From the NCBI RefSeq assembly GCF_041886205.1, contig NZ_CP169029.1: a DNA stretch of 64,000 bases; one strand, written 5' to 3'. A program made the position numbers and the translations under genes. The notes beneath the pieces were generated by a model that had not been told where the DNA came from, did no database searches, and saw nothing but the letters and a program-made list of their open reading frames with translations. The DNA is from Escherichia coli. Lineage in GTDB: Bacteria > Pseudomonadota > Gammaproteobacteria > Enterobacterales > Enterobacteriaceae. Positions 1,901 to 38,969 of the stretch are shown here, piece by piece. Position 1 is the first letter of the stretch; every line of letters starts with the position of its first letter.

Positions 1901-2280
1901 ACATCACTGGGCAGTCATCAAACTCCGCATTCCTAGCATCGTGATGATGTACGTGATTGCTCCGAATATTGAGTGTGAGTAATTGTAGCCACCACCATCA
2001 TCTGGCAGTGCTTCCGTTCTCCAGATTTATCAGGTGGGACTAAGGATGAGTACGATATCGCTTAATCCTGAAACTCCATTTCAGACAGGGACCCTATTAC
2101 AGACCGAAAGACCACAGATAAGTAGTTTGTTCATAAATTAATGCGTAGAATCAATAACGGCTGGAAATCATTCAATACTCGCACTATCGAAAGTTCGCCA
2201 GCCAGCCGCAGCACGTTCTTGCATACGACGTGGCTGCGGCTTCCAACATTAGACAAATAACTCTTTAAATTGCTTTTAAA

Positions 2281-2844
2281 TTATTTCGTTTGAATGCCAG
2301 TAACAGGAAATCGTTTATATAGGGTTGATAGCCCAACGTTATAGATACGTGCAACATAACGCCGTGATTTCCCTGCCGCTATGAGCGCTCCCATCTGTTG
2401 CCACTGCTCGTCGCTAAACTTCGGTCTACGCCCACCAATCCGGCCTTTGGATCTGGCAATAGCCAAACCAGCTAAAGTTCGCTCGCTATTCAAATCAGAT
2501 TCATACTGCGCAGCAGAAAGAATATTACGGAAATTATAGCGACCACTTGCTGTTTTCAGGTCTACACCATCTGTAATACTCCGAAAATTAACGCCTTTTT
2601 CGTGCAGATTTTGAAACATCAATAGCGCATGTAGCACATTTCTCCCTATCCGATCTAGCTTCCAGACAATCAACTCATCTCCACTTTTCATCACCGAAAT
2701 TAATTCCTTTAACACAGGGCGATTAGCTGTTCTGCCACTGGCATATTCTTCATAAATTCGCTCACAGCCAGCTGACTCAAGTGCAAGACGTTGCAACTCT
2801 GTATCCTGATGATTTGTTGATACACGAACATACCCGTAAATCAT
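2281..2844 (-). CDS. Serine-recombinase DNA invertase (Pin/Gin/Hin family)
   Basis: 187 aa; N-terminus MIYGYVRVSTNHQDTELQ with catalytic-Ser motif; C-terminal HTH; adjacent to inverted crossover sites. Confidence 0.9.
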   Translation of the reverse strand: MIYGYVRVSTNHQDTELQRLALESAGCERIYEEYASGRTANRPVLKELISVMKSGDELIVWKLDRIGRNVLHALLMFQNLHEKGVNFRSITDGVDLKTASGRYNFRNILSAAQYESDLNSERTLAGLAIARSKGRIGGRRPKFSDEQWQQMGALIAAGKSRRYVARIYNVGLSTLYKRFPVTGIQTK

Positions 2845-2903
2845 GAGTGCTTCTCCTGTTGTAAAAACAGGAGAAGAGGCGAAATATCACCTGATTCAGA
2901 AAA

Positions 2904-2929
2904 ATATTTGAAAGGTTGGTTTGGGAGAA
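2904..2929. other. Invertase crossover site A (gix/hix-like 12+2+12)
   Basis: atatttgaaagg-tt-ggtttgggagaa; inverted copy of the site at 4814-4839 (15 nt identical in reverse complement) with matching AA/TT core. Confidence 0.7.
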
Positions 2930-3415
2930 GGCTCAGCGTTACCCGTTGGTGTGCCTGTTCCGTGGCCTTCAGCCACACCACCAACAGGCTGGCTGAAATG
3001 CAACGGTGCACCTTTTTCTGCCGAAGAGTACCCAAAACTGGCAAAGGCTTACCCAAAGTTAAAATTACCGGATTTGCGCGGTGAGTTTATTCGCGGGTGG
3101 GATGATGGGCGAGGTGTTGATTCCGCGAGACTGCTGCTTTCAAGTCAGGCAGCATCTATCCTTGAACATAACCATGAAATGCATGGATGGACAGGGAACC
3201 CACTCATGGCTAGAGATGTTGGTGAATTAGGTACATCATCCGTATTTGCGGTGCAGTTGAGCATTGGCGATGGCGGGTTATTGTATTCGTGGAAGGATGG
3301 GAGTGGAACAACAAATGACAGTAAACGAATGGATAGAACAAATCATGTCAGTTCCGGCGCCGGTGATGGTAGCCCGCGAAACATTGCATTTAACTACATT
3401 GTGAGGGCTGCATAA
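2921..3415 (+). CDS. Alternative tail-fibre C-terminal variable segment (promoterless in current orientation; fused to constant part after inversion)
   Basis: ORF begins inside crossover site A; GLGEGSALPVGVPVPWPSATPPTGWLKCNGAPF tail-fibre C-terminal motifs. Confidence 0.65.
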   Translation: MGEGSALPVGVPVPWPSATPPTGWLKCNGAPFSAEEYPKLAKAYPKLKLPDLRGEFIRGWDDGRGVDSARLLLSSQAASILEHNHEMHGWTGNPLMARDVGELGTSSVFAVQLSIGDGGLLYSWKDGSGTTNDSKRMDRTNHVSSGAGDGSPRNIAFNYIVRAA

Positions 3416-4018
3416 ATGGAACAGGCTATTTTGGGAAAAGACGGTTACGCTTTAAATGATGGGGAAATCATCGTACATAACTATGATGGCGAAACGCGGG
3501 AATATATTTCTACATCAACTGAATATCTCGCTGTCGGAGTCGGTATCCCGGCATGTTCCTGTCTGGATGCACCAGGTACACATAAAGCTGGTTATGCAAT
3601 CTGTCGCTCTGTAGATTTAAATTCATGGGAATATGTGCCAGACCATCGCGGTGAAACGGTCTATAGCACCAAAACAGGAGAATCAAAAGAAATCACCGCT
3701 CCGGGTGATTACCCTGAAAATACAACCACTATCGCCCCATTAACGCCATACGATAAATGGGATGGTGAGAAATGGGTGACCGATACTGAGGCACAGCATA
3801 GCGCCGCAGTAGACGCGGCAGAAGCACAGCGCCAGTCACTGATTGATGCTGCAATGGCTTCCATTAGTCTGATTCAACTGAAATTGCAGGCCGGACGTAA
3901 ACTGACGCAGGCAGAAACAACCAGACTTAACGCTGTGCTGGATTACATTGACGCGGTGACGGCAACAGATACCAGCACCGCGCCGGATGTCATCTGGCCT
4001 GAACTGCCGGAGGCGTAG
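3416..4018 (+). CDS. Tail fibre assembly protein (alternative cassette, Tfa')
   Basis: 200 aa, starts 1 nt after the variable segment; C-terminal ...PDVIWPELPEA typical of Tfa family. Confidence 0.7.
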   Translation: MEQAILGKDGYALNDGEIIVHNYDGETREYISTSTEYLAVGVGIPACSCLDAPGTHKAGYAICRSVDLNSWEYVPDHRGETVYSTKTGESKEITAPGDYPENTTTIAPLTPYDKWDGEKWVTDTEAQHSAAVDAAEAQRQSLIDAAMASISLIQLKLQAGRKLTQAETTRLNAVLDYIDAVTATDTSTAPDVIWPELPEA

Positions 4019-4442
4019 GCCATTCAATATCTGGCGCACTGGAGGTATCAACCAGCTCCAGTGCATCCAGATAATCCAGCCACAAATTATATTGCGCCAG
4101 TTCCTCACCTTTCAGACGACCAATAGCGGCTTTACCGGGCCATTGCTTACTGTTCATGTATTCGTTGGCCTGGTTAATTAGTAGCTGTCTTTCTGATTCA
4201 GTAATTTCAATAAGCTCTTCATGCGTGGGTGGAGGAATATCTGCCCACGCAGGCAGCCCATCATCTCCGGCAATACGGATTTTTCCTTGTGGCGGTTCAG
4301 CCATAAACTCACTGATAATATTTTGATTTACTTCCTTAGCGTCTGATAAATCCCATCCCTCTGATTTATATTTATCAATCATATCCACAGGGAAAAAAGC
4401 ATTATGCCTTGCGCTATAAACATATTCGTTCATATAAATCAC
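3990..4442 (-). CDS. Tail fibre assembly protein (Tfa, active cassette)
   Basis: 150 aa; C-terminal ...PDIEWPTPP; 3' end overlaps convergent tfa' by 29 nt. Confidence 0.75.
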   Translation of the reverse strand: MIYMNEYVYSARHNAFFPVDMIDKYKSEGWDLSDAKEVNQNIISEFMAEPPQGKIRIAGDDGLPAWADIPPPTHEELIEITESERQLLINQANEYMNSKQWPGKAAIGRLKGEELAQYNLWLDYLDALELVDTSSAPDIEWPTPPAVQAR

Positions 4443-4453
4443 CCTGAATAAAA

Positions 4454-5116
4454 TTACTCACCAACAGCCCACCAACTGTAATTCATCGATACCGTGTCGC
4501 TGGTTGATGACGTTCTGTAAGCAGAATTAAAGCCGGTTAACGTTGGGCCTTCTGCAGTCATCACGAACCCTCGCCCAGCGCCTAAAGGCGCACCGCCATC
4601 ACCAGAATGAGTAAGCATGGCGCAGTCCGCTTTTTTGGGGAAAGGGATGCTGAATGTAATTCTCATTGTTTGCGTCGATAATGTCGGCGTAACCGCACCA
4701 CGACCATATTGCAGGATTTTCCCGTTGGGTAATTTCATCCATCCATCACCACTGGCAAAAGAGGCCATGTCCGGTATCTGATTTTCCCCTGTCCCCACAT
4801 CCCGTTTTGCCGCTTCTCCCAAACCAAGGTTTTCGAGAGCCGTTTTCACCGTGCCATCCGATTTGATATCGCCAAACGGATTCTTGCGGCTTAACAGCAG
4901 CGCACGAAGCGCGGTAAGCAGCTGGTCATGCCGCCCCTTCTCCAGGCTGGCACCGGATGCCTCCACCACGCTGCAAAGTTCCTCCTGCAACATGTCAAAG
5001 TAGTCATCATCCAGATCGGTGGCAGGCGTGCCGGTCTGGGGGTTACCACGGGTAAAACCGTTCTTACCCGCGCCGAACTTATCCTTCTGCGCGGTTTTCG
5101 TGTCTATACGATGCAT
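4454..5116 (-). CDS. Tail fibre protein (constant N-terminal part + current variable C-terminus)
   Basis: 220 aa; crossover site B lies in frame inside the gene (encodes [11 protein letters not shown]). Confidence 0.7.
4814..4839. other. Invertase crossover site B (gix/hix-like)
   Basis: ttctcccaaacc-aa-ggttttcgagag, close to recalled gix/hix consensus; inside tail fibre gene. Confidence 0.7.
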
Positions 5117-5119
5117 GAA

Positions 5120-5704
5120 TTACTCCGGATATTTAAAAATTACGTAGGTATGCGACGGGCAGAGTTTGTTAAGCACACACTCGACAACGGTGTCGCCCCA
5201 GATACGCAGTGCGGAATCACAGGGATCGCCACATGTCATCCAGGTGGTGTTGGTGGCGGCTGGCATGTTGACCTGCCAGTAATACCGCCATTCCGGCGCA
5301 TTCACAGCGTCAGTGCAGGCTGATGAGCAGGTGAACGTGCTTTTGTCGTATCGCGTGATGGTAGCGTCTGGTCTGCCCAGGGCAGCAAGCTGTGCAAGAT
5401 AAAAATCCTCGTTGATGCCGCCCGCCAGGTTAACCTTCGCATCCAGCCGTTGCTGACGCTGGCGAAGGGTCTGTGTCCCTGCGGGAATACATTCATCCGG
5501 CAGACCGCACAGACGCTCCCAGCGGTTTATCAGTTCAGTGGTGGTGCGCGGATCCAGCTCCCGCATCAGGGCATCCGCACGCTGATGAACGCGGGTTAAT
5601 GACGGTGCCGCACCGGCAATCGCCGGATCGCTGGCTGACCACGCCGGACCGGGGGGCAACAGTGCCGACAACAGACGGATGTAATCATCGTTTGTCACGT
5701 CCAT
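5120..5704 (-). CDS. Mu gp48-like tail protein (YmfQ/DUF2313-like)
   Basis: 194 aa; position between baseplate J and tail fibre. Confidence 0.55.
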
Positions 5705-6753
5705 GAAATCGTCCCCAGTACCGCCAGTTCATTTTTTGCAATGGAGATATTGTCTGCCGGTGCAAGCAACTGATGGCTGTATTCCCCGTTCGCACCGGAA
5801 ATCGCTTCACTGATACGCGACACCTTCAGTTCTCCCTGCGGATAACCATCACGCAGCAGGAACGAACGCAACTCGGCGGTGATGGCAGCCCGTATTTCTG
5901 GTGTATCCGGCGTCACACGGATATGAAAATCCACCGTATGCGCCACCGGCCTGAACACATACAAATCAGAGCCTGCCACCGGGGCCAGTGGCTCGATATG
6001 CAGCCTTGCCGCCGTTTCCGTTGATTCTTCCGGAATGGGATTAATCAGGTCGCTGCTGGCAATCATCACACCGACAGTCCCCGTTCCCATCCAGTGTCGG
6101 TATGTCCATGCGCGGGTAATGCCGGGAACTTCTTTAGCCCAGACGACATAGTCCCCGTCAGCCCCGCCCTGAGGCGTCCAGTAATACCGCTCAATGACGC
6201 GGGCGCGCCACATTTCCAGCTCTTCAGTATCAAATCCACCTGTCAGTGTATCTGCCACGCCGGAAGACGGCAGACCATTCACCGGCGTGACCAGGATTAA
6301 TGACGTACCGTCGTCAGCGTTACCGACCGCGCCTGCACTTGAGCAGGCGATCGGCACGCGCAGGACACCACCGGAGCTGGTTGCATCGGCAGTTGCCGTG
6401 TACTGCACCAGGTCATCGCGCTGAATAACACTCCCGGCGGTCACCTTCAGGCCATCGCTGACACCTTCCCAGCGCATATACCCGCTGGCAGCCGTGGCCC
6501 CCTTGCGCGGACACCGTTTCATCGCAGCATGTCGCGCCAGCCAGGACTCATCGCACAAGTCAGGCAGCATGTTCATTGCCAGATAATCGATGTACCCGTA
6601 AACCGTATGCAGCGCCGCCGCATACACCTTTGCCCGCACGTCTTCATCCATGCGCCGGAGCGTGTCGCTGACGTCCAGCCTGGCGAATAAATCGTTACGG
6701 AGCATACTGATATTTTCTGCCAGCGTCGGGCGCTGAAATTCACTGTCCGCCAT
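5695..6753 (-). CDS. Baseplate J-like protein (Mu gp47-like)
   Basis: 352 aa; position and size; overlapping start/stop with neighbours. Confidence 0.7.
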
Positions 6754-7168
6754 GCGTTATCGCACTCCACAGATCATCAAAAGAAATCATTACCGGTCCG
6801 TCACGACGCCAGAGAGTGATACTGTTACCCAGTTCATTAATCCCGGTGCGGCGGATATCCAGATCAATACGGGACACCACGCCATCATCAATCATCCATT
6901 GCAGGCATTCGCGGATATACCCCCTTACCGTCTGCACCAGCTGATTGGTCAGTTTGCTGCGCTGAAGCAGCCACAGTCGGGAGCCGTAACGGTCATTCTG
7001 TACCGCAGGCCAGGTATCCCCCCACCATCCCATCGGGACGCCGGCGTTGTCATCAGGCTCCGCCCGCCGCCAGGTAAACAGGGAAATCACCACGGCGCGG
7101 GTCAGCGGATCCAGCGGTGCGCTGGCGCAGGTGCGTTTACCGTTCACCGTCAGCCACAGTTCCATCAT
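6740..7168 (-). CDS. Mu gp46-like baseplate protein
   Basis: 142 aa; synteny within Mu-like baseplate cluster. Confidence 0.55.
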   Translation of the reverse strand: MMELWLTVNGKRTCASAPLDPLTRAVVISLFTWRRAEPDDNAGVPMGWWGDTWPAVQNDRYGSRLWLLQRSKLTNQLVQTVRGYIRECLQWMIDDGVVSRIDLDIRRTGINELGNSITLWRRDGPVMISFDDLWSAITHGGQ

Positions 7169-38430: not shown

Positions 38431-38549
38431 CCGCCTTCTACAATCTTAAAGTCTTCACCTACGCTAGGTCAATTGAAGTGATGAGCAAATGATGCTTTCT
38501 AAGAAGAACAGGTTCCCAATAGGCTCCCACAAAGTGTATAACTACTTGT

Positions 38550-38675
38550 TTTTCAAAAACGGTACATCCTATCGAGCATTGGTGCAACGCTAAACCGACC
38601 ACTCCAGTGAACGTCAGTTTTTTCAGGCATTGCGCTGGTTTGGTTGATTTTTTGCATTTCAGAATTACCGTGCAT
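38550..38675 (-). pseudogene. dusA: Displaced 5' end of dusA (first ~35 codons) at the prophage attachment junction
   Basis: Minus-strand translation MHGNSEMQKINQTSAMPEKTDVHWSGRFSVAPMLD matches recalled DusA N-terminus, then diverges (RMYRF-stop). Confidence 0.6.
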
Positions 38676-38969
38676 TTTCAAATGTAGAGATTATTTTATC
38701 GATATATCATGGGGTTATGTTATTCAGCATCACTGTTCAGGAGGCTCAATAGCGGGGTACTATACCATAACAACAGGAAGCGCCTGTCTCATTGCAAAAG
38801 AAAATTGAGATCCTCTCAAGGCATGAAGCTCTCACGAAGTGATGGAAATAATCTTATTAGCCGTTAACTTTGTTAAGGCCAATGATAAACAATCCAGGTT
38901 CGACGATAAATAAAAAATCACACATTAAACTCCGGTGATATCTCCCCCTGCTAATAGCATTGATAGAGA

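Follow-up and report, generated by a model that had tools for sequence, protein, structure and literature searches.

The window, by which the whole analysed stretch is meant, comprises 64,000 nucleotides of the Escherichia coli chromosome (assembly GCF_041886205.1, contig NZ_CP169029.1), and its plsB-lexA-dinF-zur stretch is 99.8% identical to that of other strains. Near its left end (2281-5116) lie a serine DNA invertase gene, two cassettes that each consist of a tail-fibre C-terminus and a tail-fibre assembly chaperone, and two 26-bp crossover sites, site A next to the invertase and site B within a tail-fibre gene. The locus is very probably a functional two-state site-specific inversion switch, of the kind represented by the P segment of e14, the G segment of Mu and the C segment of P1, carried by a prophage at dusA. 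A first-pass annotation, made from the letters and a list of open reading frames (ORFs) alone, had proposed a Pin-type switch with two convergent cassettes beside the invertase, and this layout agreed with the ORFs and their PHROG families. Coordinates are provided in Table 1.

The presently expressed fibre gene consists of a constant N-terminus (4840-5116), site B, and a gp53-like variable C-terminus (4454-4813). The true start of its partner chaperone (3990-4442) is likely the ATG at 4433; the homologues in relatives measure 441-444 nt. The homologues of the other chaperone (3416-4018) carry the annotation tfaE in relatives, and the collar cassette to which it belongs would be expressed solely after inversion. 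The two convergent chaperone genes share 29 nt at their 3' ends (3990-4018), exactly like tfaP and tfaE of e14. No NCBIfam equivalog was obtained for the invertase or the fibre proteins, the top matches being under the cut-offs.

Table 1. Features of the inversion locus, with positions counted from the first letter of the window.
Feature	Positions	Strand	Description or basis
Serine DNA invertase gene, 187 aa	2281-2844	-	ORF; adjoins the segment
Positional equivalent of the classical recombinational enhancer (putative)	2755-2826	-	Gene nt +19 to +90
Perfect 11-bp hairpin in invertase leader	2850-2876	-	Lies between site A and the start codon; Shine-Dalgarno sequence AGGAG in its 3' arm
Site A (invertase-proximal)	2904-2929		ATATTTGAAAGG TT GGTTTGGGAGAA; core 2916-2917
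Invertible segment	2918-4825		1908 bp between the two core dinucleotides; in-silico inversion
Tail-collar-type fibre C-terminus cassette (StfE/Sv'-like), silent, promoterless	2921-3415	+	PHROG 523 tail collar fiber protein, 6.2e-62
Tail-fibre assembly chaperone (TfaE-like), partner of the collar cassette	3416-4018	+	PHROG 105 tail fiber assembly, 7.1e-96
Tail-fibre assembly chaperone, partner of the presently expressed cassette	3990-4442	-	PHROG 188 tail fiber assembly, 2.2e-64
Presently expressed tail-fibre gene, 220 aa	4454-5116	-	PHROG 1396 tail fiber protein, 9.3e-92
Site B (within the fibre gene)	4814-4839		TTCTCCCAAACC AA GGTTTTCGAGAG; core 4826-4827, codons ...LENLGLGE

Sites A and B are imperfectly palindromic, lie in opposite orientation and have the same AA/TT core dinucleotide. 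A repeat search of positions 2000-5400 returned 2911-2930 and 4813-4832 (20 nt, 90% complementary) as the top inverted repeat. The exact 14-mer common to both sites, TTCTCCCAAACCAA, is made up of one half-site plus the central dinucleotide; it occurs exactly twice in the window, on opposite strands, and when as many as 2 mismatches were tolerated, shuffled sequences contained 0.41 matches on average. When gix-like 26-mers built from two half-sites were sought, sites A and B alone were recovered in the window (0-1 in each shuffle). Being both the top repeat and unique in the window, the inverted gix/hix-like pair picked out from the letters alone was borne out. The sequence of site B equals that inside e14 stfP and that in all related loci examined. 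Site A begins 85 nt upstream of the invertase ATG, a position fixed in most of 80 related loci. Its outer half, which reads CCTTTCAAATAT on the other strand, is specific to the lineage of the window's invertase, and the outer half-site follows the invertase type: loci of this lineage have CCTTTCAAATAT or CCTTTTTTATAA, and loci with Pin have CGTTTATGAAAA. Three viral loci from IMG/VR (L024, L052 and L061) have a proximal site that combines the lineage-specific outer half with a Mu gix-like inner half (TGTTCGAAACG), which suggests that cassettes may have been exchanged with fibres of the G-segment type. A multiple-inversion system of the Min/p15B type (shufflon-like, at least three sites) was considered and ruled out, as the window has two sites only.

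Site B lies in frame within the fibre gene, where the native orientation reads ENLGLGE/AAKRDV. In-silico inversion of the segment kept the frame (ENLGLGE/GSALPVGVPVPWPSATPP) and gave a fibre ORF of 262 aa instead of 220 aa, as the first-pass annotation had foreseen in claiming an in-frame swap of the fibre tip at this site. Other E. coli genomes contain each of the two junctions so predicted, in keeping with the proposal of a Pin-type invertible switch. For the fusion of the constant part with the collar cassette, a 791-nt query was contiguous at 98.6-98.9% identity in 6 complete genomes; in these the gp53-like cassette is silent next to a classical Pin-type invertase. For the other junction (window invertase, site A and gp53-like cassette), a 1135-nt query matched over its full length at 98.6-98.9% in CT02 and APEC37, in which the invertase is 99.5% identical to that of the window and the gp53-like cassette occupies the silent position.

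The orientation of these loci was compared with the native sequence by pairwise BLAST. In CT02 and APEC37, the flanks 2121-2930 and 4813-7000 aligned directly and 3375-4827 aligned on the opposite strand; both loci were collinear with the in-silico flipped sequence, and homology broke at 2916-2930 and 4813-4827. The natural loci L010, L011 and L025 were collinear with the flipped version and had breakpoints within the 15-bp repeat shared by the two sites; L025, from IMG/VR, carries the junction of invertase and gp53-like cassette with the same diverged invertase. Since the alignment switches at the flanks, the breakpoints fall inside this shared repeat, as expected of crossover at the core. 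The inverted interior forms a single block at 94-95% identity.

The same arrangements might have arisen by homologous recombination or cassette replacement instead of site-specific inversion, and it is true that the cassettes are mosaic and have been exchanged between prophages with different invertases. This origin is very improbable: the 15-bp repeat is too short for efficient RecA recombination, the breakpoints coincide exactly with the half-site plus core, and the interior is inverted as one block. On the aligned breakpoints, homologous recombination is effectively excluded as the source of the alternative arrangements. With both junction types present in other genomes and breakpoints at the sites, the segment is read as flipping at the population level, and the window's own copy is presumably active now.

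The cassettes beside the proximal site vary widely. The AAK-type cassette stands beside a window-type invertase in about 30 of 60 E. coli records among the matches listed; in the remaining listed records the match ends with the shared repeat (query position ~650) and a different cassette follows, mostly annotated "phage tail protein". An evenly sampled search with a query of the native invertase and cassette was swamped by unrelated tail-collar matches, so that no ratio of orientations was derivable from it. At least six cassette classes abut the proximal site across 80 viral contigs with the window's invertase lineage (IMG/VR loci L014-L093), and GANWVMLPGG represents one of several cassette types found there. 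In some of these loci the second site is merely 217-863 nt away, a spacing that suggests possible shorter segments or multi-site variants. Prophages L007-L009 have a classical Pin-type invertase 51-54% identical to that of the window, a constant fibre part at 97% identity, the same fibre-internal site and cassettes nearly identical to those of the window; from this pattern it follows that the invertase module and the fibre module recombine independently.

The invertase contains the Pfam domains Resolvase (2.8e-36) and HTH_7 (1.4e-11), and its family match was PHROG 125 (DNA invertase). Its alignment with Gin (3UJ3) is gapless, with E = 8.5e-57 versus 1e-21 for gamma-delta resolvase. An origin from a resolvase of the Tn3/gamma-delta type or from a transposon was ruled out, the protein being far closer to Gin and the crossover sites being single and inverted. 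All catalytic residues are kept (Y5, R7, S9, R42, D64, R65, R68, E121 and R122, and also Q13, S36 and D56); therefore a catalytically dead invertase, named by the first-pass annotation as an objection to the switch, does not apply.

Identity to Pin, Cin, Gin, pro483 and Kp4870 was 51-57%, compared with 76-87% among these five and 79-88% inside the window's own lineage. Against e14 PinE it was about 54-56%, and the divergence from E. coli Pin stated in the first-pass annotation thus proved real (about 54% to PinE). The divergence is unevenly distributed. In the DNA-binding domain (136-180), the window and PinE are 71% identical, compared with 67% for Pin and Cin; the corresponding values are 49% versus 98% in the catalytic core (56-100) and 46% versus 89% in helix E (101-135). 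The recognition segment of the DNA-binding domain, STLYKRFP, is identical to that of PinE, and such a Pin-like domain fits inner half-sites identical to those of e14. By its sequence the enzyme is assigned to a diverged lineage of the Gin/Cin/Pin/Hin family. One residue separates it from the widespread WP_000639149.1, and the lineage, annotated merely as "recombinase family protein", is common in Escherichia, Salmonella, Citrobacter, Klebsiella, Enterobacter and Serratia. PADLOC reported nothing for the invertase, and no paper was found in literature searches for its lineage, SKA5, WP_000639149 or natural Fis-independent invertases.

Differences from the classical enzymes were found at residues connected with control by Fis. 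McLean et al. (PMC3798978) report six residues as conserved uniquely in Fis-dependent invertases: in Hin numbering, helix B supplies K47, K/R48 and K/R51, and helix 1 of the DNA-binding domain supplies Q151, R154 and L155. The equivalents in the window are K46, E47, S50, Q150, A153 and L154, so that three of the six marker residues are kept and three are replaced. All six are present in eight classical comparators and five in the more distant YpM44 invertase; by the same marker set the window's invertase does not group with the Fis-dependent enzymes. Across the lineage, position 50 is non-basic in every variant examined, position 153 is variable, and R47 is found in most members. The residues that lock the dimer also differ, with N104 for Hin F105, I108 for M109, R106 for H107 and Y114 for Gin M114; the Hin mutant F105N showed robust Fis-independent DNA cleavage and poor ligation (PMC4513852). 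Residues of the Phe88 pocket, read from the Gin alignment, differ as well (L66I, L76M and V77F), and the pocket may have co-adapted with helix E.

The Fis-dependent enhancer that the first-pass annotation suggested looking for in the 5' end of the invertase gene is putative here, the first of two Fis-like elements being conserved and the second not. The P1 record annotates the cin enhancer at gene nt 19-90, and the Fis 15-mers in the classical genes were placed by position only, from this annotation. In each of nine distinct classical genes, one G-N13-C element spans nt 22-36 and another nt 71-85; in the second, the flanking G and C are invariant and Gly26 is encoded by GGA in all nine. The first Fis-like 15-mer is present in the window (GTATCAACAAAtCAt) and retained in the lineage as GTATCAACAAA, the window having T, not C, at nt 36. 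Of 17 lineage variants, 15-16 have preserved its rare codons GTA-TCA-ACA. All 17 variants lack the G at nt 71 in the second element, a base present in nine of nine classical genes. All four synonymous codons for Gly26 occur in the lineage, and the synonymous sites of the second element drift freely. Along the invertase gene, synonymous-site diversity is lower at nt 1-45 and normal at nt 46-90, a pattern compatible with either the presence or the absence of an enhancer.

The leader hairpin has a free energy of -19.3 kcal/mol (z = -4.35), and none of 200 shuffles was equally stable. Members of the lineage have conserved it, with a single compensatory change of an outer pair from C:G to U:A, and upstream of pin and gin the hairpin is much weaker or absent. 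It presumably throttles translation of the invertase and so keeps flipping rare. A candidate promoter overlapping site A, TTCAAA-18-GATATT, matched at 8 of 12 positions and is not claimed.

These observations bear on the possibility that the switch is genuine and that control in this lineage differs from that of Hin, Gin, Cin and Pin, the Fis checkpoint being weakened, rewired or lost and translation being kept low by the hairpin. Such a difference is put forward tentatively. It is favoured by the three replaced marker residues together with the non-basic position 50 in every variant examined, by the replacement of the Hin F105/M109 lock, by the second Fis-like element lacking its G in every variant, and by a strong leader hairpin specific to the lineage. 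It is countered by retention of the first Fis-like element with its rare codons, of K46, Q150 and L154, and of R47 in most members; moreover, Fis sites are degenerate, and the first site of cin itself is also without the C at +7. An altered dependence on Fis in the window's lineage is thus conceivable and somewhat doubtful. The wider proposal, that a widespread and unstudied enterobacterial branch has the Fis/enhancer checkpoint relaxed or replaced and the rate of flipping set by a hairpin that sequesters the Shine-Dalgarno sequence, is equally provisional; it would draw further on the loss of the basic patch of helix B and of the Fis-contacting Arg in helix 1 of the DNA-binding domain. If true, the lineage would be a natural counterpart of the hyperactive laboratory mutants of Hin and Gin.

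The switch is located at the left end of a prophage of roughly 36 kb (~2121-38678) at a dusA site, and the right end is marked by a dusA 5' fragment (38467-38678). Escherichia phage SKA5 (OR670062) aligns collinearly with this prophage at about 97% identity. Its tail and baseplate are of the Mu type, and the early region of the prophage is lambdoid. A search of the window for tRNA genes gave none. In relatives, dusA-int-DinI is directly left of the invertase; in the window, this place is held instead by a gene for a Clp-fold serine proteinase of the SDH family (844-1848, 334 aa), and an IS5-family transposase fragment on the minus strand (1-780) runs off the window. In other strains an S24/LexA-like gene accompanies the SDH-family protease at this cargo position, and PADLOC reported nothing for the protease.

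Several points weigh against a functional switch. No sigma-70-like promoter for the invertase was found in a promoter and terminator scan, in which the site count was no higher than in shuffles, and only 5 of the 11 positions in the outer half of site A agree with the half-site consensus of the classical systems. With the left arm (int and DinI in relatives) replaced, the prophage may be unable to excise, and a host-range phenotype would then be moot. The differences in orientation between genomes could also have been made in trans by other Pin-type invertases, because e14 has the same inner half-sites and PinQ flips the e14 segment (PMC12529663).

A further reading is that the locus is a fossil or locked switch, which inherited its sites and genes from an active ancestor and no longer inverts, or inverts only through other cellular invertases, in a decaying prophage. 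Besides the altered left arm, the IS5-family fragment and the uncalled promoter, degraded remnants of the module elsewhere would fit this view. In phage phi458 (OP434518, locus L006), positions 5916-6279 contain a single proximal site together with an invertase cut short after ~92 aa, with IS1 adjacent, and this locus is interpreted as a decayed remnant of the same module in a lambdoid phage genome. O157 matches to the window's invertase begin only at 2747, yet pinE is annotated beside the fibre module there. A fossil state is nevertheless unlikely for the window, where the invertase ORF is full-length, differs by a single residue from WP_000639149.1 and has its catalytic residues all present. 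Both crossover sites are intact and identical to those of loci in either orientation, the cassettes and chaperones are intact ORFs, and elsewhere the prophage keeps its collinearity with SKA5.

For a functional two-state switch, the following course of events is envisaged. Invertase dimers would bind sites A and B, cut at the central AA/TT, rotate one pair of subunits through 180 degrees and religate, so that the 1908-bp segment would be inverted. Because site B is in frame within the fibre gene, the constant 98-residue N-terminus, the putative baseplate anchor, could be joined to either of two tips. In the present state it would carry the gp53-like tip, giving the 220-aa fibre served by the chaperone at 3990-4442, and in the flipped state the tail-collar-type tip, giving a fibre of 262 aa that relies on the chaperone at 3416-4018. 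A population of lysogens would then release virions with either of the two receptor-binding tips, as a bet-hedge on host range, and the swap of tips probably changes the host range of the phage.

It was also considered that the host chiefly benefits, the flipped fusion of constant part and collar cassette acting as an analogue of the e14 fusion StfE2, which blocks T2 adsorption when PinQ has flipped the e14 segment (Kirigo et al. 2025, PMC12529663), and so keeping other phages from adsorbing. The module is homologous to that of e14 and has the same fibre-internal site, with ~4804-6482 being 96% identical, which favours the idea. The collar cassette, however, is about 75-85% identical in DNA to e14 stfE, over part of its length only. 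The module also lies within an apparently complete set of tail genes, collinear with that of a deposited phage, so that a function in virion host range is simpler, and a chiefly host-serving role is improbable.

Mu, P1 and e14 long ago made inversion of tail-fibre segments known, and E. coli prophages routinely contain such switches. The switch described here is ordinary in kind, and what is new is a member from a diverged invertase lineage. Both states of the locus are defined to the base pair, which is of help in assembly and also in annotation, because relatives such as L001-L003 have the silent cassette annotated as a stand-alone "tail protein". Two quite different invertases use the same fibre-internal site and cassette pool, so that host-range modules can move between prophages; this sharing is also an indirect hint that the window's enzyme may be functionally interchangeable with Gin, Cin, Pin and Hin. 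The lineage differs from the studied enzymes exactly at the residues for Fis dependence and dimer locking, which makes it an inexpensive natural experiment on the evolution of this control; Fis-independent invertases for use in engineering might also be obtained from it.

Among known systems, the locus is like the e14 P segment with PinE of E. coli K-12 (ymfQ-stfP-tfaP / tfaE-stfE-pinE), the inversion of which was demonstrated by experiment (Goldberg et al. 2014, PMC4272514; Kirigo et al. 2025, PMC12529663), in gene order and orientation. The 96% identical block noted above covers the constant fibre N-terminus and the upstream ymfQ and baseplate genes, and the two loci share an identical crossover sequence at the ENLGLGE codons inside the fibre gene, TTCTCCCAAACC AA GGTTTTCGAGAG. 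In both, the invertase reads away from the segment and the second site is 55-60 bp upstream of the invertase ATG. The two differ in the proximal outer half-site (CGTTTATGAAAA in e14, CCTTTCAAATAT in the window), and neither a PinE orthologue nor the pix outer half-site was found in the window. The e14 segment is 1797 bp long, compared with 1908 bp here, the variable cassettes differ, and e14 is a defective element at icd, whereas the window holds a full-length prophage at dusA. The G segment of Mu with Gin and the C segment of P1 with Cin have the same two-domain serine recombinase, alignable end to end without gaps, and 26-bp sites with a 2-bp core, and their inversion swaps a fibre C-terminus together with its chaperone as in the window. 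In contrast to Gin and Cin, to which it is 51-54% identical, the window's invertase has half of the Fis markers and much of helix E replaced, its gene has a second Fis-like element that is not conserved, and the constant part of the fibre is much shorter than in Mu and P1. Also close are SKA5 and the dusA prophages with WP_000639149.1, which have an invertase 99.5% identical to that of the window and the same pair of sites and layout, and which differ from it in part of the variable cassettes and in having int-DinI left of the invertase.

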